Source: Escherichia phage MN03
DNA length: 64,000 nt
Sequence record: NC_070990.1
Direction: 5' to 3' (one strand)
A model generated the notes under the pieces. The model searched no databases. It was not told the origin of the DNA and worked only from the letters and a program-made list of their open reading frames with translations. A program made the translations under genes and the position numbers. This document shows, piece after piece, positions 1,826-16,488 of the stretch. Within the stretch, counting starts at the first letter, position 1. Each line of letters opens with the position of its first letter.

Positions 1826-2725
1826 TTATGCCGCCTGACGTGCCGCCATAATTTCAGCCGCTTTACGCAATACTTCTTCCTCTTCTGCTTTCGCCGCTTG
1901 TTCGGTACGGGTAGCAACCGTTGAAGAGATACGACCGCGCAGACTTTCTAACTTCTCCTGCATAGCTGCAACAGTCTTTTCCATTTCATCAGCGTATGAA
2001 TCGAGTGATTCTAATTCCTTGCTTGATGCGTTCATCAGATAATCATCCGAGATCGCTACCGTTGAGGCCGTGACTTTCTTGATGAGTGAATCAAAGGACT
2101 TTTTAACCTTCCCAACTTCTTCACTCAGGGCGATAGTGTTATCGCTGGTTGCGCCGTTGCGCTCATCAGCCAGTAATTTGGCTTCAATACGGATTGCATT
2201 CAAGCGTTCAACCAAAGCGTAAATATCCTGATTAAAATCTTCCTTGTTTTTCGCCGGAATTTGCAGGTGTGCCGCCACGTTGTCATTGCAACCTTTGTAG
2301 AAGTTAGGATTATCCACTTCAATTGCACGACCTAATGCAAAGTTTTCGAAAGCGTTTGACCAGCGAGCGCGGTTTTGTTCCATTTTGGCCTTAATTTGCG
2401 CTTCTTTCGCATCTTCTTTAGCTTTCGCCTCACCTTCCAGATTAATCCACTTTTTACGACCATTTGCCGCATCGGTGTTAAACTTGATAGGAGTTAAGAA
2501 AGTAATTGCGGTAGCGATAACATCCATATCACGGAAACGTTCAGTTAACAGAAAATCAACCGCCGTCTGCAATACTTCCAGCTTTTTACCGTTACTGCGG
2601 AAGTGCTGCAAGTGCCCTAACAGAAAATTAGAAACATCTTGTTTGATCGCCGCGTTATTGCTACGAATGTTGTTAGCCAGTGCATTAAAACCGGATTCGT
2701 TAACCAGAGTAAAGATTTTAGCCAT
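1826..2725 (-). CDS. Hypothetical protein (~299 aa), coiled-coil-rich C-terminus
   Basis: ORF track ORF 1826..2734; start moved to ATG at 2725, which has AAGGTGA 6-7 nt upstream; no family recognised. Confidence 0.55.
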   Translation of the reverse strand: MAKIFTLVNESGFNALANNIRSNNAAIKQDVSNFLLGHLQHFRSNGKKLEVLQTAVDFLLTERFRDMDVIATAITFLTPIKFNTDAANGRKKWINLEGEAKAKEDAKEAQIKAKMEQNRARWSNAFENFALGRAIEVDNPNFYKGCNDNVAAHLQIPAKNKEDFNQDIYALVERLNAIRIEAKLLADERNGATSDNTIALSEEVGKVKKSFDSLIKKVTASTVAISDDYLMNASSKELESLDSYADEMEKTVAAMQEKLESLRGRISSTVATRTEQAAKAEEEEVLRKAAEIMAARQAA

Positions 2726-4096
2726 GATATTCACCTTTCAATTGTAAGGGCGCTATTGCCCCGCTCTCTATGAGCTTGTTTAAGTCACTATTAACTTAAC
2801 TATAACCACTCGTTGTTAAGTAGTTATAGGTAAGCGGGGCGGTCTTATCAGGAGTTAACCTTGCCGCCCCCTTATCCGTGATGTTTCATCTGGTATCTTT
2901 AATTAGTCGCTATAAACGAAGCCGACCTGATAGCGATGATCAATCATCACAATAAGGCTATGCGTCCGACTCTATTTAATTACATTGCTGTAACCGTCGG
3001 CAATATCGTCTACTTTGTTTTCGCTCCCGCTTATCCTTTTGTATCAGCTCTCTATCGCTAGTCATCGCCCACTACGGGATACTATTGCGAAAGAGTCACT
3101 AACCGCCTAATATTCCGGCGTTTTATATCTTTCAGCAGGTTTACTACATAACCCGGCTATGTACTTTCATCCTATGATGAATCTCAAGCCGTTCACATCG
3201 TAAACGTTCGCATTAAACCTTATTGTTAAATAGCAATTTGCCACTTTTTAACCACTCCCCGCCGCTCTCAATTGAGCGTTAATTCGTCGGACTTGCCTAC
3301 CCTGATTAACTTCTTTCACTGTAGCACCGTGTTAGCAATGACCTCCGCTACCCTTAACCGTGGGCGATTAGCTCAAGTCTTTGCGTGTACTCAATGAATC
3401 CGTTTATCAATGGTGACGTTTCCAGTAAGGGAATGTAAAACTGTTTACCCTGATAATTTAGGGAGTTTTACGCCGTTTTATCTGGTATGCTTTCCGATGG
3501 TTATTATCATCAAGCATATTCAACCGATATAGGAGAATGTTTAAATTATTAAAGAGCGGTAAATCTATCAGTGTGCTTTCTCACACTATGCAACTGTTAG
3601 CCGTTGTTACGCTTTTCACTGAAGCGATGATTTGCTTAGTGAGTGCTCATTATGAATCATGTTGTTTTCGCTGTCAACCGCTTTTTAATCTTTTTTCGTC
3701 GTTCCCGCTATTGGGAGGATATATCAATCAGCTTTATTTGATTGAAGATTAAGCGGTGAGGCTTAACTTATGACTCATATTGTTAAAGAGCGTTTAGCCT
3801 TTTAAAGTGTCTGCTAATCACTGTCACATTGAAGGCTTACTGATTCATTAACAGGCCGCCTACACCTGAACTAATCGCTGCACTATGTGCCACCTTTCCC
3901 GCGATACGTTGATTTGGGAACTAGTTAGCGATGTTTTGCTAACTTGTGGTTAGTATGGACTACTTTAACCACGTTTGCAACTCTTTTTATCATCTTCTTT
4001 TAATTCCTTTCCCTTATCTCGCGTGAATCTATGCGAAAGGGCAAGATGATAAGTTTTTAAAGAGCGGGATTTTTTAAGTCATCGCTGACTATGCTC

Positions 4097-4125
4097 ACTA
4101 TATATCAGGCTTTTTCCGGTGTCAA
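4097..4125 (-). promoter_or_regulatory. Candidate sigma70-type promoter (minus strand): TTGACA, 17-nt spacer, TATAGT
   Basis: Minus-strand reading of 4125..4097 is TTGACAccggaaaaagcctgataTATAGT; perfect -35 and 5/6 -10 with canonical spacing. Confidence 0.4.
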
Positions 4126-4509
4126 TACTCTTTTTTGAGAATATTTTCACTTTCTAGCCTGATTTTTAAAGAGCGGGGCAATTTCTTGCCTTGTATGTTT
4201 TACATCGTACCCGATGAAATGAAGTATACGCTAATCAGATGAGGTTGCAATAGGGTAAAGCAAATTATTTTAAACTTTTTCACTATAGGAAGGTAAAAGA
4301 GCAGGCGCACGCGATACATCATAGAAAACGGCTTGTAAAGCGATATTTAGCGGCCTAAAACGCATCACAACGGGCTAAAAGGGAGTAAGGCATACAATCA
4401 CCTCATAAAAGAGAAAAGCCTCACTAGGAGGCTTACAGGAAGGATTAGAGAATCAGATAAATTATGACCATAGGCATGACTACGGCACAATACAGGAGAA
4501 AGATTAAGC

Positions 4510-4887
4510 CTATGGATTTACACATTGACCATTACCGGACTCAATTTCATTCATGGACTCATCAAAGAGCGTCAACGATGAGCGCATCAAGTGATCTATC
4601 GTGATTTGTTTACCGGTAGTTTCATTTACCAGCAGAATAGCTTTGTTATCTGATTGCACATGATCAAAATCATTTACATGCAAAATAATAACTTTAGGTG
4701 ACTGTTTACCAGTTTCATAGTTTTCTATCAAATAGGTGCACTGTAAACCGTCAACCGTAGCAGGGGAGAACATTGCAGCCTTAACACTACCCATAGACGA
4801 TAGGAGAACGCCCAGCAGGAGAACGACAAGGAAGAAGCCCACGAATACTTTTACTACAAATTTGATAATACCCATGATAATAATCAC
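4510..4887 (-). CDS. Hypothetical membrane-anchored or secreted protein (125 aa)
   Basis: ORF track; N-terminal hydrophobic stretch IIKFVVKVFVGFFLVVLLLGVLL. Confidence 0.4.
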   Translation of the reverse strand: MIIIMGIIKFVVKVFVGFFLVVLLLGVLLSSMGSVKAAMFSPATVDGLQCTYLIENYETGKQSPKVIILHVNDFDHVQSDNKAILLVNETTGKQITIDHLMRSSLTLFDESMNEIESGNGQCVNP

Positions 4888-4972
4888 CTATAGTTAGAGA
4901 ATATAAGAATAAAGCATATCAGCGACGAATAACGCCACTGTAACGACGAACAAGCAACGCCAAAAATAATCA

Positions 4973-5248
4973 CTATTCATCGTTGCTATTCTCGCCAAAA
5001 AATGCTACGCTAATCTGTTCCACTTCTTCCAGCGACAGGAGAATCCCGCGTTGGGCTAAATACTTCCCAACAGTTAGATAATCTTGCACTAAACAGACAA
5101 TAGGAAAGCGTATATTTTGAATCTCACCTTTGGAAAGAAAAGACAAATATCCAACGTCGATTGATTCATCAAAGGACAATGTAACGCCACCGTAATTATG
5201 CGTATCAATTAACGCAATAGTTTCATTTCCCATTGGTATCATCCCCAA
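4973..5248 (-). CDS. Hypothetical protein (91 aa)
   Basis: ORF track; overlaps upstream ORF by 26 nt. Confidence 0.3.
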   Translation of the reverse strand: MGMIPMGNETIALIDTHNYGGVTLSFDESIDVGYLSFLSKGEIQNIRFPIVCLVQDYLTVGKYLAQRGILLSLEEVEQISVAFFGENSNDE

Positions 5249-5489
5249 TCAGACCATGATTAAGCAGGTTAGCCAGCGACAAATCACCGTCAATATAGAT
5301 TGATCTGAAATCATCGCGGGTAATTTCGAAATCAGCAAAGGCTAGCCAATCTTTAAGAGGCTGATATTCCATCCTGCAAAAAGTGATAACAGGCAAGATT
5401 ATCTGACCATCAAGTGTATTAAACTCGATAGATTGCCCACCAACAAAACAAGAAAAGCCGTTTGATAACTTAACTTCTTTGATAGCCAT
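5223..5489 (-). CDS. Hypothetical protein (88 aa)
   Basis: ORF track. Confidence 0.3.
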   Translation of the reverse strand: MAIKEVKLSNGFSCFVGGQSIEFNTLDGQIILPVITFCRMEYQPLKDWLAFADFEITRDDFRSIYIDGDLSLANLLNHGLIGDDTNGK

Positions 5490-5514
5490 TTTTACACTCC
5501 TGAAAATAGGTTAT

Positions 5515-6006
5515 TTACTTACTAGCCTTAATACAGTTGGCTAAACTAACGTGAACGGTATAAACAGCGTTATTAGCGTTATTATAAACAGTTGTAGCAA
5601 TCATCGACTCATTGATCGGGCCATAACTCACCAGATTGGTTACAGCTTTAACGTCTTCGTAACGTTGTACAGTGCCAAATGTAACCATATCCGAGTCACT
5701 ATCGGTGCGCTTGAGAACTAGATCATTGTTAGGCTGATTGTCTAGTGTCTTAGACTGAAAGAGAACGCCATCATTAGTTACGTTACTAAATTTCATCTTT
5801 AGCACAATGGTAGTGCCGTCACTATCCGCACCGTTGCAAATCATCCAACCTTTGTTGATGGAACTAACGAAAACACTAGCCGCATCAGTTGCAGGAGCAG
5901 GACTAGCAACAGCCTTGTCAGAAAGAGATGTGACCAGTGCACTAACACCAATCGCTGCAACCAGTGCATAACTTGCCAGATTAACTACCTGCATTGATTT
6001 AGCCAT
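5515..6006 (-). CDS. Secreted protein with predicted signal peptide (163 aa)
   Basis: N-terminus MAKSMQVVNLASYALVAAIGVSALVTSLSDKAVA then SPAP; Sec-signal-like. Confidence 0.5.
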   Translation of the reverse strand: MAKSMQVVNLASYALVAAIGVSALVTSLSDKAVASPAPATDAASVFVSSINKGWMICNGADSDGTTIVLKMKFSNVTNDGVLFQSKTLDNQPNNDLVLKRTDSDSDMVTFGTVQRYEDVKAVTNLVSYGPINESMIATTVYNNANNAVYTVHVSLANCIKASK

Positions 6007-10444: not shown

Positions 10445-12688
10445 ATGGCTAAGCAAAAATATAGTGAAGAGGTGTTGGACGAGTTACGTGTTGACCTTCA
10501 ACGTCGTTTTAATTACGCTCAAGGCTACGTGGACATGGCTGTTAAGGGCTATGCTCGTGAAGCTTGGGAATATTTCTATGGTAACTTACCTGCACCAGTA
10601 ACTGCTGGCAGCTCTAGTTGGGTAGATCGTACTGTTTGGGAATCTGTTAACGGTACATTGCAAGATATTATTAACGTATTCTGCTCTGGTGATGAAGCAG
10701 TTACTTTCGTAGCTGACAACCAACAGGATTCTGATGCTGCTGATGTAGCAACTAAATTAGTCAACCAAATTCTTCTGCGTGATAATCCGGGATACAATAT
10801 TATCTCTTCTGCTGCACAAGAATGTCTGGTTACTCGTAACTCTTTTATCAAGTATTATTGGGATGAACAAACTTCTACTCAAACTGAAGAAGCTGAAGGT
10901 GTACCACCGGAAGCATTGGCTGCATATGTTCAGGGATTAGAAGCTGGTGGACTCAAGAATCTGGAAGTCTTCACTGAAGAAAATGAAGACGGTACAGTCG
11001 ATGTTAAAGTTACTTACGAACAAACTGTTAAACGTGTGAAAGTTGAATATGTTCCTTCAGAGCAAATCTTTGTTGATGAACATGCTACCTCTTTTGCAGA
11101 TGCACAATACTTCTGTCATCGTGTACGTCGTTCTAAAGAAGATCTGGTTGCTATGGGCTTCCCTAAAGATGAGATTGAAGCATTCAACGACTGGACAGAT
11201 ACGATGGATACCACTCAATCTACAGTTGCTTGGTCTCGTACTGACTGGCGTCAGGATATTGATGCTGATATTGGTACAGATACCGAAGATATCGCTTCTA
11301 TGGTTTGGGTTTATGAGCACTACATCCGTACTGGTGTTCTAGATAAGAATAAAGAGTCTAAACTCTATCAGGTTATCCAAGCTGGCGAGCATATCCTTCA
11401 CACTGAAGAAGTAACTCACATTCCGTTTGTAACCTTCTGCCCGTATCCGATTCCGGGTTCCTTCTACGGTCAATCAGTCTATGACATTACGAAAGATATT
11501 CAAGATTTACGTACCGCGTTAGTTCGTGGTTATATTGATAACGTCAACAATGCTAACTATGGTCGATACAAAGCCCTTGTTGGTGCATACGATCGTCGCT
11601 CTCTGCTTGATAACCGTCCCGGTGGAGTGGTTGAAATGGAACGTCAGGACGCTATTGACCTGTTCCCATACCATAACCTACCTCAAGGTATTGACGGCCT
11701 CCTAGGCATGTCTGAGGAGCTTAAAGAGACACGTACAGGTGTAACCAAACTAGGCATGGGCATCAACCCTGATGTGTTTAAGAATGATAACGCTTATGCA
11801 ACCGTCGGCTTGATGATGAATGCTGCACAGAACCGCCTCCGTATGGTATGTCGTAACATTGCTCACAATGGTATGGTTGAATTGATGCGTGGTATTTACA
11901 ACCTTATCAGAGAAAATGGTGAAGTTCCTATCGAGGTACAAACCCCTCGTGGTATGATTCAGGTAAACCCAAAACAATTACCAGCTCGTCACAACCTTCA
12001 AGTTGTTGTAGCCATCTCCCCTAACGAGAAAGCAGAACGTGCACAGAAACTGATTAGCTTGAAACAGCTGATTGCAGCAGATGCACAGTTAGCACCTCTC
12101 TTTGGTTTGGAGCAAGACCGTTACATGACTGCACAGATCTTTGAGTTGATGGGTATTAAAGATACTCATAAATACCTTCTGCCTCTGGAACAGTATCAAC
12201 CTCCAGAACCTTCTCCGATGGAAATCCTCCAGCTCGAGATGACTAAAGCTCAGGTTGAGAACGTACAGGCTTCTTCTCAGAAGATGATTGCTGATGCATT
12301 CGACCAACGTGAACGTACTACATTCGAACAGCAGAAAGCTGCGGATGAATTAAGTCTGCGTCAGGAAGAGTTGCAGTTCAAGCAAGAAAATGCAGCAGAT
12401 GCAATGACTCTGGAAAACCGTAAAGAAGATAACAATGCTACTCTGGAACAAGCTAAGCACAAGTTAGCTCTTATGCAACAGCAGGTCCGTCAGTATGAAT
12501 CTGTACTGAAAGAATTGCAGATGGTTATGTCTCATCAGGTAGACCAAGAGAAGATTGTTCAGCAAGCTCGTGTTCAGGACAAAACTTTGGAACTCCAAAA
12601 GAAAGAAGCTAATGTAACTAAGAAAGAGCAACAAGCTTCTCTCAAAGATTCACGGATTCCAGGCAAACGTCTTGGAAGTAAAAAGTAA
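10445..12688 (+). CDS. Portal protein (747 aa) with long coiled-coil C-terminal tail
   Basis: Large gene directly after the large terminase and before scaffold/capsid; call by synteny and size. Confidence 0.7.
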   Translation: MAKQKYSEEVLDELRVDLQRRFNYAQGYVDMAVKGYAREAWEYFYGNLPAPVTAGSSSWVDRTVWESVNGTLQDIINVFCSGDEAVTFVADNQQDSDAADVATKLVNQILLRDNPGYNIISSAAQECLVTRNSFIKYYWDEQTSTQTEEAEGVPPEALAAYVQGLEAGGLKNLEVFTEENEDGTVDVKVTYEQTVKRVKVEYVPSEQIFVDEHATSFADAQYFCHRVRRSKEDLVAMGFPKDEIEAFNDWTDTMDTTQSTVAWSRTDWRQDIDADIGTDTEDIASMVWVYEHYIRTGVLDKNKESKLYQVIQAGEHILHTEEVTHIPFVTFCPYPIPGSFYGQSVYDITKDIQDLRTALVRGYIDNVNNANYGRYKALVGAYDRRSLLDNRPGGVVEMERQDAIDLFPYHNLPQGIDGLLGMSEELKETRTGVTKLGMGINPDVFKNDNAYATVGLMMNAAQNRLRMVCRNIAHNGMVELMRGIYNLIRENGEVPIEVQTPRGMIQVNPKQLPARHNLQVVVAISPNEKAERAQKLISLKQLIAADAQLAPLFGLEQDRYMTAQIFELMGIKDTHKYLLPLEQYQPPEPSPMEILQLEMTKAQVENVQASSQKMIADAFDQRERTTFEQQKAADELSLRQEELQFKQENAADAMTLENRKEDNNATLEQAKHKLALMQQQVRQYESVLKELQMVMSHQVDQEKIVQQARVQDKTLELQKKEANVTKKEQQASLKDSRIPGKRLGSKK

Positions 12689-12697
12689 GGACGTCGA

Positions 12698-12934
12698 ATG
12701 AACATTAGGCATCAATTCAATAAAGAGCACGCCGCCGCTTTGGCGGCTCTCAATCTTAACGGCAGTCTTGACGCAGCATTAGAGGCATTGAAAGAAAGAC
12801 TCATGACAGAGATAGTTCAAACTGAACCTCATGAGAATAAGAAACGCGAAGATTGTTATCAAAAGTATAAAATGGTGGGTAGCTTAAAAGAGGTCATAAA
12901 AGCTGCTATCAATAGTGCAGGAGATGTTTCATAA
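12698..12934 (+). CDS. Hypothetical protein (78 aa)
   Basis: ORF track; AAGGA SD; TAATG stop-start overlap with next gene. Confidence 0.4.
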   Translation: MNIRHQFNKEHAAALAALNLNGSLDAALEALKERLMTEIVQTEPHENKKREDCYQKYKMVGSLKEVIKAAINSAGDVS

Positions 12935-14010
12935 TGCCACAAGATAATTATATTGACCCGAACGATTTTAAATCTTTCCTCCAACTGGATGACCTGAAAG
13001 GTTCTTTCAAAGAAGAACTCGGTCGATTAGAATCTGAACAAGAACCAGAAGTGGACATTGACGATGAGTTCCCGGAAAAAGACGGTGACGATTTCGACTT
13101 TGATACCGACCTTCTCGGTGAAAGCGATGAGCTTAAGTTCGAAGATGAAGATGGTTGGGAAGATCGTGAAGAGGAAGGCGAAGTCGAAGAAGATGAAGAT
13201 GAATCCTCTGAAGCAGAAGAACAAGAGGAAGAAGATTCAAGCGATGCAGAGTATGAAGATGATTCTGCTGACGGTGAAGGTGAAGTCTTTGATGTAGACT
13301 ACGAGACCGTTATCACCCTTCCTGATGGACGTGAGATGACTATTGAAGAACTTTCTAATGGCTATCTTACTGGTGCTGATATGACAGAACGAGAATCAAC
13401 TCTTCAGCGTCATATGGAAGCATTCGAGGAACGTGTAGTAGGTTTGAAGGATGTATTAGAACTAGCGTCTTTAGAAGCAGACCGAGTAATTGAAGATTAT
13501 AACGGTTTTGATTGGGACAAGCTTGCAGTAGAAGATCCTCAAGCATATGTTGAAAACAAACGTTTCCTAGAGAAGTACACAGCTCGCCGTCAACAGCTTG
13601 AACAGGCTCAGGTCCGTATTAAGCAGGAAGCAGCAGCTAAAGAGCAGGAAGCTTTCCAAGCCAAGAGTATTGAATGTGTTAATATTCTGAAACGTGAGAT
13701 TCCAAATTGGGATGAAAACTTATATCAAAACTTAATGCAATACGCAATTGACTTAGGTGCTACTGAAGAAGAAGTATTGAAGGAAAACCGTCCGTCTATT
13801 TTCCTAGCTCTCCACAAAGCATACCAATTTGATAAAGGTAAGCAACAGGTGATGGCTAAGATTAAACGTCCCGGTGCTCCACGCAAGGTTGTGAAGTCTG
13901 ATGCTGCAAAGTCTCGCACTTCCAATAAGCCCGACAACGCTAAGGTTGCCAAGGCATTCGCAGAGGGTCGCGTTAGTCACGAAGACGCATTCAAATTCCT
14001 CGTAGATTAA
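12934..14010 (+). CDS. Putative scaffolding protein (358 aa), highly acidic N-terminal region
   Basis: Asp/Glu-rich low-complexity N-terminus, helical C-terminal part, located between portal and major capsid. Confidence 0.5.
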   Translation: MPQDNYIDPNDFKSFLQLDDLKGSFKEELGRLESEQEPEVDIDDEFPEKDGDDFDFDTDLLGESDELKFEDEDGWEDREEEGEVEEDEDESSEAEEQEEEDSSDAEYEDDSADGEGEVFDVDYETVITLPDGREMTIEELSNGYLTGADMTERESTLQRHMEAFEERVVGLKDVLELASLEADRVIEDYNGFDWDKLAVEDPQAYVENKRFLEKYTARRQQLEQAQVRIKQEAAAKEQEAFQAKSIECVNILKREIPNWDENLYQNLMQYAIDLGATEEEVLKENRPSIFLALHKAYQFDKGKQQVMAKIKRPGAPRKVVKSDAAKSRTSNKPDNAKVAKAFAEGRVSHEDAFKFLVD

Positions 14011-14051
14011 TCGACAAATTAAATTATTAATAGTATAGGAGCTAACATAAC

Positions 14052-15110
14052 ATGGCTAATCCAACTTTATTTGTATCGTATGACCAGAATGGTAAAAAAC
14101 TTTCTTTTGCTAACTGGATTTCTGTTCTGTCCCCTCAGGATACCCCGTTCGTATCTATGACCGGTAAAGAGTCTATCAACCAGACTATCTTTAGCTGGCA
14201 GACCGATGCACTGGCAAGCGTTGACGGTAATAACGCACACGTCGAAGGCTCTCGTGCTGAAGACGGCGAAATGAAACCGACTGTTATCAAATCTAACGTT
14301 ACTCAGATTCTGCGTAAGGTTGTTCGTGTTTCTGATACTGCTAACACCACCGCTAACTACGGTCGTGGTCGTGAACTGATGTATCAGCTGGAGAAGAAAG
14401 GTAAAGAGATCAAGCGTGACCTCGAGAAAATCCTTCTGTCCGGTCAGGCTCGTACCGACGTTCTGGCTGATCAGTACCTGACTAACTCTGCAACTGATCC
14501 TGCAACTGTTGGTCTGAACGACACTCATGCAGCTCGTAAGACTGGTGCATTCCAGTTCCTGTGTGCTCACGGTGGTCTTGCTGGTGGCGTTGTTGACAAG
14601 ACCAAGAATGGTCCTGCTGACCCGGATACTGGTGCAGTAACTGTTAAAGTTGCACAGAATGCTTCTAACCCGACCACTAACATTGGTTTTGACGAAGCTG
14701 ATATCTTTGATATGACTCTGCAACTGTATACCGCTGGTTCTGAAGCAGATATCATCATGATTAACCCGGCTCATGCTAAGATCTTCGCTGGTCTGCAAGA
14801 AAATACTCAGGGTTCACGTAAGCGTATCTTTGAGAACACCAAGCAGTTCATCTACGAAGTTAACAGCATCACTGACCCGCTGGGCCAGAGCTACAAAATC
14901 ATCGTTAACCGTTGGATGCCTACCGATGCAGTTTACTTCTTCCGTAGCGCTGACTGGACTCAGATGGTTCTGCGTGCTCCGAAACGCACTGAACTGGCTA
15001 AAGACGGTTCTTACGAGAAGTGGATGATTGAAATGGAAGTTGGTCTGCGTCACCGCAACCCGTACGCTTCCGGCGTTCTGTTCACTGCCGCGGGAAAGGT
15101 GGTGGCGTAA
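14052..15110 (+). CDS. Major capsid protein (352 aa, short form)
   Basis: Position after scaffold, strong SD, followed by frameshift extension and a strong terminator; typical size. Confidence 0.8.
   Translation: MANPTLFVSYDQNGKKLSFANWISVLSPQDTPFVSMTGKESINQTIFSWQTDALASVDGNNAHVEGSRAEDGEMKPTVIKSNVTQILRKVVRVSDTANTTANYGRGRELMYQLEKKGKEIKRDLEKILLSGQARTDVLADQYLTNSATDPATVGLNDTHAARKTGAFQFLCAHGGLAGGVVDKTKNGPADPDTGAVTVKVAQNASNPTTNIGFDEADIFDMTLQLYTAGSEADIIMINPAHAKIFAGLQENTQGSRKRIFENTKQFIYEVNSITDPLGQSYKIIVNRWMPTDAVYFFRSADWTQMVLRAPKRTELAKDGSYEKWMIEMEVGLRHRNPYASGVLFTAAGKVVA
15092..15098 (+). promoter_or_regulatory. Candidate -1 programmed ribosomal frameshift slippery heptamer G GGA AAG
   Basis: GGGAAAG lies in the capsid frame as GGA-AAG, 10 nt before the capsid stop; the -1 frame is open from here into the Ig-like ORF. 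Confidence 0.5.
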
Positions 15111-15634
15111 CAGTAGACAGTGTGACTGTTAGCCCTGCGTCTTTAGCAAGTCTAGAGACAGGGGCTACTCGGCAGTTCACTGCAAGCGCGGAGAAAAGTG
15201 ATGGTTCTACCGAAACAACTGGCTTTACTTGGTCAGTGACAGGAGGTGGTTCTATCACTCAGTCTGGTTTGTATACTGCTCCGAGTGCGTCTCAATCCAC
15301 TGATGTATCCATTACTGCAACTTTAGAAGGTGTTTCTGGTACAGCAACCATTTCTGAAATTGTTGCTCCTGCTCCTACTATTGTAGCTAAGGGTCCAATT
15401 ACGGGTAAAACTGGTGGTTCTTCCACTAACTTCACTACCATGTTTACTGTAACTAGTTCTACTGCTGCGGATTACACGTTTGTTGTAACCCCTACAGAAG
15501 CTGGTACAGTAAGCGCCGCTGGTGCGTTAACCTTAGATGCTGCTGCAAGTGGCGAAGTTACTGTTCAAGCAAGTTTGACAGCTGACCCATCCATCAATGC
15601 AACATGCACTTTTACTGGTGTAACACCTGCTTAA
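15092..15634 (+). CDS. Ig-like (Big_2-type) C-terminal extension of the major capsid protein, reached by -1 frameshift
   Basis: ORF 15122..15634 has no SD and is in the -1 frame relative to the capsid gene; sequence TVSPASLASLETGATRQFTASAEK...TWSV...ITATLEGVSGTATISE resembles bacterial Ig-like group 2 domains. Confidence 0.55.
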   Translation, partial: GKGGGVTVDSVTVSPASLASLETGATRQFTASAEKSDGSTETTGFTWSVTGGGSITQSGLYTAPSASQSTDVSITATLEGVSGTATISEIVAPAPTIVAKGPITGKTGGSSTNFTTMFTVTSSTAADYTFVVTPTEAGTVSAAGALTLDAAASGEVTVQASLTADPSINATCTFTGVTPA

Positions 15635-15641
15635 AATTAGA

Positions 15642-15670
15642 CCCTGCCTTCGGGCGGGGTTTTTTCGTTT
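15642..15670 (+). terminator. Strong rho-independent terminator after the capsid gene
   Basis: ccctgcc-ttcg-ggcgggg hairpin followed by ttttttcgtttt. Confidence 0.8.
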
Positions 15671-15693
15671 TAAGACCTATACAAGCCAGTGTG

Positions 15694-15702
15694 TAATGTA
15701 TA
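15694..15702 (+). promoter_or_regulatory. Phage-type promoter element TAATGTATA, 34 nt upstream of the 15736 start codon
   Basis: One of six near-identical AATGTATA-core motifs, all in intergenic DNA and mostly 34-60 nt before a start codon. Confidence 0.45.
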
Positions 15703-15735: not shown

Positions 15736-16488
15736 ATGGCAATGCCAGATGTTCAATACCCCATCAATACCTATGGGTGGCTAAAGAAGGCCGTGGCCCT
15801 CTGGGCAGATAGGGACGATGACGAATTTGTTAATCAAATTCCAAACTTTATTAACTTTGCAGAGAAAGAGATTTATCGTAACTTACGTATTCCTCCTCTG
15901 GAAAAAGAAGTATATTTAGATATTAAAGATGGAGTAGCTTACATTCCTCCTGATTACTTAGAAGCTCAATGGATGATGAGAGCCAAAGATGGCACAATCT
16001 TCCAAGTAACCTCTCCTGAAGAGATTAGCTATCGTAGACAGCATGGAACAATTAACCCATCTCACTGGAATAACCAACCTGTCAACTTTGCTCGTTTCGG
16101 TAGTCGTTTCATTTTCTACCCTAGCATCGAAGCAGATACTCCGTACTACCCTGATGATGGAAGCCCTTTGATTCCAGCAGAAAACTCAGTGATTCTTAGC
16201 TATTATGCAGACCCACCGGAATTCCATGAAGATACAGATACTAGTACTATTCTTACTATAGCACCAGAACTTCTTCTGTATTTCACCCTACGTCATGCTT
16301 GTCTCTTTGTTCAAGATGATAATGGTGTTCAGAAATGGTCAGCATTAGGAAAAGCTATCCTTGATGAAATGGTAGAACAGAATAAGAAACAAGAGTACTC
16401 AGGTTCACCTATCGCAATTCCGAATAACATGACTCGACTTCAGAGCAGCTTGCCTGATATTTATGGTATTCGTACTTCTCGTGTATAA
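15736..16488 (+). CDS. Virion structural protein (250 aa), function unknown
   Basis: ORF track; AAGGAGG SD; within structural module. Confidence 0.5.
   Translation: MAMPDVQYPINTYGWLKKAVALWADRDDDEFVNQIPNFINFAEKEIYRNLRIPPLEKEVYLDIKDGVAYIPPDYLEAQWMMRAKDGTIFQVTSPEEISYRRQHGTINPSHWNNQPVNFARFGSRFIFYPSIEADTPYYPDDGSPLIPAENSVILSYYADPPEFHEDTDTSTILTIAPELLLYFTLRHACLFVQDDNGVQKWSALGKAILDEMVEQNKKQEYSGSPIAIPNNMTRLQSSLPDIYGIRTSRV

Follow-up and report, generated by a model that had tools for sequence, protein, structure and literature searches.

A -1 frameshift of the type published for its phage group very probably appends Ig-like domains to the major capsid protein of Escherichia phage MN03

Introduction

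The capsid frameshift described here is already published for the phage group of Escherichia phage MN03, and our result is a rediscovery, not a new feature. For phiEco32, both the frameshift, reported in 2008, and the long capsid form are on record as cited in PMC7881722 and in a note to phage Paul's RefSeq entry (PMID 18294652). The same frameshift has been reported for SU10, Privateer and YF01 (PMC7881722, PMC4281155, PMC9965538), and in Privateer two capsid bands were seen on SDS-PAGE and the long form was found by mass spectrometry (PMC7881722). The RefSeq record of Paul annotates the frameshift; most records, those of the nearest relatives included, list capsid and extension as two genes. 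In the mass spectrometry of SU10, an entry '9+10' (about 264 residues, 22 peptides) stands beside gp9 alone (about 275 residues, 23 peptides), and because its coverage is near gp9's own, the '9+10' entry may rest on gp9 peptides alone. The cryo-EM map of SU10 contains no extra density, and its genome differs from that of MN03 in that the -1 ORF is lost, the -1 frame reaching a stop after 7 codons, as read from the sequence.

In another phage family, T3 and T7 also shift to the -1 frame late in the major capsid gene (10A/10B) and thereby produce a minor long form, at a slippery sequence that differs from GGGAAAG. The rate of the T3/T7 gene 10 frameshift is about 10%, as cited in PMC9965538, and the extension is Ig-like in T3 but not in T7 10B (PMC5009743). 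An earlier note on this DNA had drawn the parallel with T7 10A/10B, which holds for the minor long capsid protein but not for the Ig-like domain. The lambda G/G-T system shares G GGA AAG and the host translation system with MN03 and works at a low-percent efficiency (about 3.5% at the GGGAAAG heptamer, as cited in PMC9965538), but it operates in tail chaperone genes, and its product is an assembly chaperone, not a virion surface domain.

Results and Discussion

Capsid gene and probable shift site

We analysed a window of 64,000 nucleotides from the MN03 record NC_070990.1, and all positions are those of this stretch. Across the region, MN03 is 98.4% identical in nucleotide sequence to phiEco32 and 99.8% identical to KM01, TH06 and phiEc_1. 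It resembles the capsid frameshifts of phiEco32 and other Kuravirus phages in the heptamer, the spacing, the order scaffold-capsid-Ig extension-terminator-adaptor and the presence of two Ig-like modules, here called D1 and D2. From gp11/gp12 of phiEco32, a phage of the same genus-level group, there is essentially no difference, with one D2 copy in both, whereas YF01 and Paul carry four D2 copies plus an extra C-terminal domain, in extensions of about 540 aa. The main features are the following.

14037..14041, plus strand: Shine-Dalgarno (SD) AGGAG of the capsid gene, read from the sequence, anti-SD pairing -6.5 kcal/mol
14052..15110, plus strand: major capsid protein gene, short form, 352 aa, 38.7 kDa, HK97 fold, SU10_MCP family
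15092..15098, plus strand: slippery heptamer G GGA AAG, zero-frame register X XXY YYZ
15098..15110, plus strand: overlap zone, zero frame (AA)G GTG GTG GCG TAA, -1 frame GGT GGT GGC GTA
15108..15110, plus strand: TAA that ends the short capsid form in the zero frame
15098..15634, plus strand: -1 frame extension, 178 codons, then TAA at 15632-15634
15639..15672, plus strand: intrinsic terminator closing the capsid/extension transcription unit, 10-bp stem with 6 GC pairs, then a T run

The capsid protein matches SU10_MCP in Pfam (PF17236, 6e-77) and the SU10 capsid chain 7z45_A (E 9e-235). Its gene ends with the codons GCC GCG GGA AAG GTG GTG GCG TAA, in which the heptamer that the earlier note had placed by the gene end is in frame and is separated from the TAA by a spacer of 9 nt, the stop beginning at the 10th. 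No stop interrupts the -1 frame between 15032 and the TAA at 15632-15634, and it is thus open, as had been claimed, from the heptamer into the 170-codon ORF 15122..15634; the first possible start codon within this open frame is GTG 15122. After the capsid TAA, the zero frame continues with CAG TAG, which rules out zero-frame read-through, and the +1 frame is ruled out by its length of only 7 codons; therefore only the -1 frame yields a long product. Read in this frame, the overlap zone gives a Gly-Gly-Gly-Val linker, and the translated junction of the long form is ...FTAAGK349 followed by GGGVTVDSVTVSP..., with GGGVTVDSVTVSPASLASLETGATR as the predicted tryptic peptide and GGGVTVDSV as a predicted junction peptide. 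Capsid residues 1-349 plus the extension add up to a predicted long form of 527 aa and 55.6 kDa, in line with the species of about 55 kDa that had been forecast.

The strong terminator said to follow only after the Ig ORF was recovered there (the hairpin itself spans 15639-15662 and precedes the T run), and a terminator is annotated in the SU10 record too. No plus-strand promoter-like site was found between the capsid gene and this terminator. Downstream of the extension lies an SU10_adaptor gene (Pfam), and the genes form the conserved portal-scaffold-capsid-extension-adaptor module.

Evidence for programmed slippage

On the comparative evidence set out below, it is very probable that a -1 slip at GGGAAAG produces a minor long capsid protein with two Ig-like domains. 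Most ribosomes would stop at TAA 15108 and release the 352-aa major capsid protein, while a minority, with tRNA-Gly on GGA and tRNA-Lys on AAG, would slip back by 1 nt, the tRNAs re-pairing with GGG and AAA, and translate on in the -1 frame. In the resulting 527-aa protein, capsid residues 1-349 would be joined by a Gly-Gly-Gly linker to a pair of presumably Big_2-type Ig-like modules. As a minor component it would co-assemble with the short form into the prolate head, the Ig modules being tethered to the capsid. From the likeness to lambda G-T, we infer a frameshift efficiency of a few percent, at which roughly 25-70 of the approximately 715 capsid subunits would be long forms if incorporation is proportional. 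The Ig domains would presumably be displayed on the surface, where they might play a weak adhesion role.

The motif GGGAAAG as such is not rare, with 10 occurrences in the 64-kb window against 7.1 expected, but its setting in the capsid gene is unusual. It is the sole in-frame X XXY YYZ sequence of the gene; of the gene's 26 Gly codons, only the one in the heptamer is GGA, and the GCG before it is a rare codon used for 2 of the 35 Ala codons. Among the 67 ORFs of at least 100 aa, only the capsid gene combines an in-frame X XXY YYZ close to the stop (no more than 45 nt away) with a long -1 extension (80 codons or more). G_GGA_AAG has been called highly shift-prone in E. coli (PMC5009743).

The same protein would result from transcriptional slippage, with RNA polymerase dropping one nucleotide in the GGGAAA run. 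Nothing specific favours this reading, and the homopolymer runs at the site are only 3 nt long, on which ground we reject it. Productive transcriptional slippage needs runs of about 7 or more (reviewed in PMC5009743). The pattern that is conserved is moreover the X XXY YYZ register and not run length, and the chance that polymerase slippage is responsible is practically negligible.

Conservation supports ribosomal slippage. All 26 Kuravirus-like junctions examined carry the heptamer unchanged. Made up of the rare synonymous codons GCG and GGA, it is conserved beyond what the protein sequence demands. From the heptamer, the -1 ORF is open over 180-547 codons in 25 of the 26, SU10 being the exception; read in the -1 frame, the extension shows purifying selection (dN/dS 0.20-0.46), and its two other frames contain 9-16 stops. 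Privateervirus, at 57% capsid identity, has the same capsid family, GGGAAAG and a -1 extension of Ig domains, with the differences that the stop follows directly on the heptamer (G GGA AAG TAA) and that the extension combines I-set and Big_2. The 7-11-like phages SE131 and GAP52, which belong to the same capsid family and likewise make both a short capsid protein and a longer one fused to Ig, do so without a frameshift: the two proteins are tandem paralogues, the second of which is fused in frame to Big_2, so that SU10_MCP and Big_2 are joined in one frame. The comparative predictions of the -1 programmed frameshift reading proposed in the earlier note, conservation of heptamer and open frame among them, were thus all borne out, for a feature that was already in the literature.

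It is conceivable that MN03 keeps the heptamer and an open -1 frame without meaningfully making or incorporating the long form, the extension being dispensable or decaying, as it appears to be in SU10. SU10, in which a 1-nt insertion closes the -1 frame after 7 codons, is still viable, which indicates that laboratory growth does not require the long form, and the long form was not seen in the SU10 virion. Against decay stand the intact -1 ORF of the other 25 junctions with its constraint (dN/dS 0.2-0.46), the expansion of D2 to four copies in some lineages, and the MN03 extension itself, which is free of lesions and 97.7% identical in nucleotides to that of phiEco32, where the long form is reported; we therefore give this reading a very small chance.

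The Ig-like extension

Both the domain architecture of the extension and its possible start codon bear on whether it is translated as part of the capsid protein. The relevant features are as follows.

15107..15367, plus strand: Ig-like module D1 (Big_2), limits from phmmer across relatives
15368..15631, plus strand: module D2, putatively a divergent Big_2-like Ig domain, single copy here and 1-4 tandem copies in relatives
15122..15124, plus strand: GTG taken in many records for the first codon of an independent 'Ig-like protein', probably a Val codon within the extension

The Big_2-type fold that had been proposed for this ORF is borne out, if marginally: the whole extension scores 24.5 bits against Big_2 (PF02368; E 2.6e-5), just above the gathering cut-off of 22.8, and mainly through D1, the match covering residues 8-85 of the translation starting at 15092. 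The YF01 orthologue of the extension reaches 36.9 bits. D2 of MN03, at 17.2 bits, falls below the cut-off; 8 of 18 homologous copies of D2 match Big_2 (best E 1.8e-5), and the D2 profile finds the T5 pb6 C-terminal domain (E 0.003), while hhalign gives D2 and D1 a probability of only 11.8%. A phmmer search of the extension against PDB sequences yielded nothing better than E 0.087, and an AlphaFold single-sequence model of it is all-beta at a pLDDT of 51.5, a quality too low for use.

In most records, including those of phiEco32, KM01, LAMP and ShigP1, the extension is annotated as a separate gene, and gp10 was treated as a separate protein in the SU10 cryo-EM paper. The 170-codon ORF would then be translated from GTG 15122 into a 16.6-kDa Ig-like decoration protein with the putative N-terminus fMet-TVSPASLASLETGATR (beginning TVSPASL) that is bound non-covalently to the capsid. 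Termination-reinitiation is one route: in phiEco32-type sequences, that of MN03 included, the GTG lies only 11 nt past the capsid TAA, which makes reinitiation mechanistically conceivable, and it could coexist with frameshifting. However, the view of the earlier note that the Ig ORF has no SD of its own agrees with our calculation, in which the best anti-SD pairing upstream of the GTG is only -1.5 kcal/mol and 14 nt away; only 1 of 19 likely genes in the 64-kb window is weaker, and the capsid and adaptor genes have -6.5 and -11.4 kcal/mol. Relatives likewise have no conserved start or SD for this ORF: the GTG is present in 8 of 26 and absent in 18, and in these 18 no start codon occurs until 44-215 nt past the heptamer, within D1. 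In MN03 the GTG lies 3 codons inside the Big_2 match. The first Ig domain of Privateervirus and PJNS034 begins 1-2 residues after the heptamer, with no start codon until at least 60 codons further on, so an independent start would halve it. Separate translation also leaves the invariant rare-codon heptamer unexplained, and a separate decoration density was not seen in the SU10 map. We regard the separate protein as improbable, and GTG 15122 is probably an internal Val codon of an extension reached by frameshifting.

The value of this reading is in annotation, since in most deposited Kuravirus genomes the extension figures as a protein of its own, 'Ig-like' or 'hypothetical', that begins at an unconserved GTG, and the 527-aa long capsid form is consequently missing from protein databases. 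To a specialist, a textbook-type recoding that has been published for the group since 2008 will be no surprise. No part of the head evolves faster or is more modular than the Ig extension, with its 1-4 D2 repeats and a synonymous divergence far above that of the capsid gene. These properties bear both on phage-surface interactions and on the use of the capsid C-terminus for display.

Candidate RNA structures near the shift site

Folding around the shift site revealed no significant structure (z = -0.42 and -1.37), and no strong stimulatory RNA structure was found by folding at the classical spacing of 5-9 nt. The lambda G-T frameshift is reported to need no stimulatory structure, and such an element is not obligatory for this heptamer. 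The stem-loop of the SU10 paper, CTGCTGC-GGGAAAG-GCGGCGG, which encloses the heptamer, was rejected: it has no covariation support, and its 3' arm, which is the Gly-linker coding sequence, would already be unwound with the ribosome on the heptamer. Further downstream, two candidate hairpins were recognised.

15108..15131, plus strand: candidate hairpin 1, UAACAGU / ACUGUUA with a 10-nt loop, includes the TAA, 9 nt after the heptamer
15132..15165, plus strand: candidate hairpin 2, outer stem GCCCU/GGGGC, inner stem GUCUU/GAGAC

Hairpin 1 is AU-rich and starts +9 to +12 nt from the heptamer across junctions; in 17 distinct junctions its stem is invariant and its loop variable, and because covariation is absent it is uninformative alone. 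Hairpin 2 has two covarying pairs (GC:7 UA:6 AU:4 and GC:12 UG:4), and its compensatory changes join a synonymous Ser position with a non-synonymous position 14 nt off. The two-hairpin model is 99.3% paired, compared with 26-52% when the partners are slid, and single-sequence folding of the region gives z-scores of only -1.4 to -2.1. The possibly conserved hairpin pair downstream of the site, which shows some covariation, is a modest addition to the known biology; it may have a regulatory role, and hairpin 1 may sequester the capsid stop codon.

The wider proposal, that a hitherto undescribed bipartite RNA element 3' of the site modulates the Kuravirus shift and that the SU10_MCP family has at least four routes of Ig-tagging, is speculative, and we consider it rather unlikely as a whole. 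As to the routes themselves, the family appears to arrive at an Ig-tagged capsid minority through G GGA AAG, C CCA AAA, G GUA AAG, and gene duplication with in-frame fusion. Shift sites differ among sister genera, also a modest addition to what is known, and the non-canonical G GUA AAG is followed by a strong hairpin at +6 nt.

Probable Slip Site and Reading Frames

The region under study belongs to a phiEco32/SU10-like podophage of the genus Kuravirus: over 14052-15700 its nucleotide identity is 99.8% to TH06, KM01 and phiEc_1, 98.4% to phiEco32 and 97.8% to SU10, and chain 7z45_A, the SU10 capsid, is a match to its capsid protein (E 9e-235).

Features around the capsid gene
10445-12688: portal gene, followed by a small ORF
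12934-14010: scaffold gene
14052-15110: major capsid protein gene (Pfam SU10_MCP, 6e-77)
15107-15367: D1, first Ig-like module of the -1 frame extension (Big_2)
15368-15631: D2, second module of the extension (~87 aa)
ending at 15634: -1 frame with the Ig ORF in question, terminator next
15736-16488: adaptor gene (SU10_adaptor)

The capsid frame ends ...GCC GCG GGA AAG GTG GTG GCG TAA, so that G GGA AAG (15092-15098) stands in X XXY YYZ register, with a 9-nt spacer before the TAA (15108-15110). In the -1 frame there is no stop from 15032 until the TAA at 15632-15634, and after a slip this frame would be read as GGG AAA GGT GGT GGC GTA ACA GTA GAC AGT GTG..., giving the junction ...FTAAGK followed by GGGVTVDSVTVSPASL... 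The computed short form (capsid protein without the extension) has 352 aa and 38.7 kDa, the fusion 527 aa and 55.6 kDa, and a free ORF from GTG 15122 would yield 16.6 kDa. Zero-frame read-through was ruled out by CAG TAG directly after the TAA, and a +1 product by closure within 7 codons. The extension is followed by a terminator-like hairpin and a T run (15639-15662), and no plus-strand promoter-like site was found between the capsid gene and the extension. The observation of heptamer, frames and extension is confirmed, and the earlier note was right that the capsid gene ends just past a heptamer of the lambda G-T type, that the -1 frame runs open from there through the Ig ORF, that a terminator follows only after it, and that a long capsid species would be of ~55 kDa.

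GGGAAAG alone is not unusual in the window (10 observed vs 7.1 expected). The capsid gene is the sole ORF among 67 (at least 100 aa) with an in-frame X XXY YYZ no more than 45 nt from its stop and 80 or more codons of -1 extension, and the heptamer is the only in-frame X XXY YYZ across the whole gene. Its codons are rare ones here: the Gly codons are GGT 20, GGC 5, GGA 1 and GGG 0, the single GGA sitting in the heptamer, and GCG accounts for 2 of 35 Ala codons, one supplying the heptamer's first G and the other lying in the overlap.

Conservation and Alternative Routes to the Extension

We compared 26 Kuravirus-like junctions from GenBank phages, IMG/VR and metagenomes. GGGAAAG occurs in the same register, 9-15 nt ahead of the stop, in all of them, and in 25 the -1 ORF from the heptamer spans 180-547 codons or continues beyond the stretch retrieved. 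In comparisons with five divergent relatives the extension shows a dN/dS of 0.20-0.46 in the -1 frame, and its other two frames hold 9-16 stops. That the ORF is silent or dispensable in this phage is very improbable, given the selection signal and the frame kept intact in 25/26 junctions. Transcriptional slippage as the source of the long form (the capsid protein with the extension) is implausible, the runs being only 3 nt, and its probability is close to negligible.

Independent initiation or reinitiation at GTG 15122 would deliver the Ig ORF as a separate product. The best upstream anti-SD pairing of this codon is -1.5 kcal/mol at 14 nt, compared with -6.5, -7.4 and -11.4 for the capsid, scaffold and adaptor genes, and only one of 19 likely genes in the window pairs more weakly. 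The GTG has a counterpart in 8/26 relatives; in the others the first ATG/GTG/TTG lies 44, 47, 98, 137 or 215 nt beyond the heptamer, within the first Ig domain. The I-set domain of Privateervirus opens with residue 2 past the heptamer, where the first start codon is 179 nt past the stop, and the Ig domain of Escherichia phage PJNS034 opens with residue 1. With the SD near-absent, the GTG so rarely shared and these domains opening so early, such a start is very unlikely as the main route, although it may be a minor extra one in phiEco32-type sequences. The proposal that the Ig ORF lacks an SD of its own thus holds, and no conserved start was found among the relatives. Conservation of heptamer and downstream frame, named in the note as a check, was found as well, also in Privateervirus. 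The frameshift interpretation is supported, and -1 programmed ribosomal frameshifting at G GGA AAG very probably joins the extension to the capsid protein.

Earlier Reports and the Case of SU10

The SU10 genome paper (2014) named GGGAAAG as a potential slippage site joining the major head protein to an Ig-like domain 'as in phage phiEco32' (PMC4281155). The Privateer paper (2021) described this signal too; SDS-PAGE showed two capsid bands, MS detected the long form, and both products are stated as observed in phiEco32 and SU10 (PMC7881722); the YF01 paper (2023) reported two capsid isoforms in YF01 'and other group phages' (PMC9965538). Among the records examined, a joined CDS is annotated only for YF01 and RefSeq Paul, the latter noting 'Frameshift at GGGAAAG; Frameshift in PhiEco32 major capsid protein product as well (PMID: 18294652)'. 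Two separate CDSs still stand in most of the Kuravirus records deposited, including phiEco32 (EU330206), KM01, LAMP, ShigP1 and four BASEL phages (L066, L069, L070, L073 among the sequences compared); their second CDS often starts at a non-conserved GTG or at an internal ATG that shortens the first Ig domain. The frameshift is therefore a correct rediscovery of a known feature, of low interest in itself, and the residual novelty lies in a candidate downstream RNA element and in the varied attachment of Ig domains within the SU10_MCP capsid family.

SU10 (KM044272, 2560-2582), the exception among the junctions, carries a 1-nt insertion plus substitutions 24 nt past the heptamer (AGTGT-GACTG to ACTGTCTACTG), which closes its -1 frame after GKGGGVTVDTVYC and a stop (7 codons) and shifts its Ig ORF to the capsid zero frame, behind two stops. 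A remark by the YF01 authors (PMC9965538) and the SU10 cryo-EM map, without extra density, agree with this closed frame. In the MS table for SU10 (PMC4281155), 23 peptides cover 78.1% of gp9 and 22 peptides cover 50.29% of '9+10'; by our arithmetic '9+10' covers ~264 of ~525 residues vs ~275 in gp9 alone, so its identification could rest on gp9 peptides only. Because the SU10 frame is broken and this identification doubtful, the strongest accessible protein evidence is that from Privateer, together with second-hand reports on phiEco32.

Candidate RNA Structure at the Slip Site

G_GGA_AAG has been called highly shift-prone in E. coli (PMC5009743), and for the lambda G-T site, likewise G GGA AAG, an efficiency of ~3.5% is cited (PMC9965538). 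No convincing classical stimulator was found, folds around the slip site having z = -0.4 to -2.1. The stem-loop of the SU10 paper was rejected as a stimulator: the heptamer lies inside it, and Gly-linker codons make up its 3' arm. Candidate hairpin 1 (15108-15131, UAACAGU/ACUGUUA) includes the capsid TAA; its stem is invariant, its loop variable. In candidate hairpin 2 (15132-15165) two pairs covary, and one of them (GC:7, UA:6, AU:4) joins a synonymous Ser third position to the non-synonymous second position of a Glu/Gln/Pro/Leu codon. Single-sequence z-scores of the two-hairpin model are only -1.4 to -2.1. The model is 99.3% paired, vs 26-52% in slid controls, with 0/500 shuffles as high. 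Related sequences are known to pass this control easily, and 33 nt separate the heptamer from the start of hairpin 2, so that we regard the element as a candidate, a lead and not a finding.

Anatomy and Evolution of the Extension

The extension consists of a Gly linker, D1 and D2. Its match to Big_2 (24.5 bits, E 2.6e-5) passes the Pfam cut-off of 22.8 narrowly and is in line with the Big_2-type fold that had been proposed. There is one D2 copy in the window and in phiEco32; NC-B has two, and YF01, mg43 and mg44 have four each. It is probably a divergent Big_2-type Ig domain, judging from profile comparisons: 8/18 copies match Big_2, the best of them at E 1.8e-5. Searched as a profile, D2 finds the C-terminal domain of T5 pb6, a tail tube protein (E 0.003), and gives a weaker match to intimin. 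The window's own copy falls under the Big_2 threshold, and hhalign of D2 vs D1 is weak. A single-sequence AlphaFold model is all-beta, with a pLDDT of 51.5, too poor for use.

Compared with L004, L005 and YF01, the extension (15098-15634) behaves like a cassette that evolves fast and is exchanged separately, with its boundary at the slip site. Its dS is 1.08 against L004 and 1.59 against YF01, far above the respective 0.17 and 0.14 of the adjoining capsid gene. Some phages add an extra C-terminal domain of ~105 aa.

Other Possible Ways of Joining Ig Domains to Capsids

Privateervirus (Proteus phages P59 and Privateer; Cronobacter phage 009), with a capsid identity of only 57%, has the same heptamer flush with the stop (G GGA AAG TAA), then a 168-codon -1 ORF. 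SE131 (Salmonella) and GAP52 (Cronobacter), in contrast, have no -1 extension and instead possess two tandem capsid paralogues, the second being SU10_MCP plus Big_2 in one frame (586 aa in SE131, 585-586 aa in 7-11-like phages, 366 aa in GAP52). Such in-frame fusions are independent evidence of a covalent link between Ig module and capsid protein.

Duplicated capsid genes
L018, SE131: 2485-5261
L020, GAP52: 3492-5629
also L034, L041 and L054

Five Lahexavirus-like sequences (L008-L011, L019; Aeromonas phage LAh_8; ~4410-4470) end their capsid gene in CTG AAG GTA AAG GCG/CCC TAA, with no canonical heptamer, and a -1 ORF of 88-169 codons with Big_2 or I-set follows, with no start for 44 nt. In L008, G GUA AAG and a 6-nt spacer precede a GC-rich hairpin and then a 12-bp hairpin (z = -3.75), an arrangement suggestive of a classical stimulator at a non-canonical -1 site. 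PJNS034 (4385-4789; capsid identity 42%) and L057 (3538-4180; 49%) carry C CCA AAA 3 nt before the capsid stop, and their -1 ORFs (130 and 211 codons) start immediately in an I-set/Ig_3 domain. A strong hairpin (z = -3.18) follows 15 nt downstream in PJNS034. In Vibrio phage Vp_R1 (4484-5584) the capsid gene is not followed by a -1 extension, and the 366-aa product of the next gene gave no Pfam match. One 125-kb viral contig, IMGVR_UViG_3300033688_000038 (L013/L040, L036), encodes two capsid paralogues: one ends GTA AAA AAG GCG TAA (heptamer A AAA AAG), and its -1 extension, just 40 codons long, is Pro/Lys/Val-rich and has no Ig domain; the other is extended in frame at its C-terminus.
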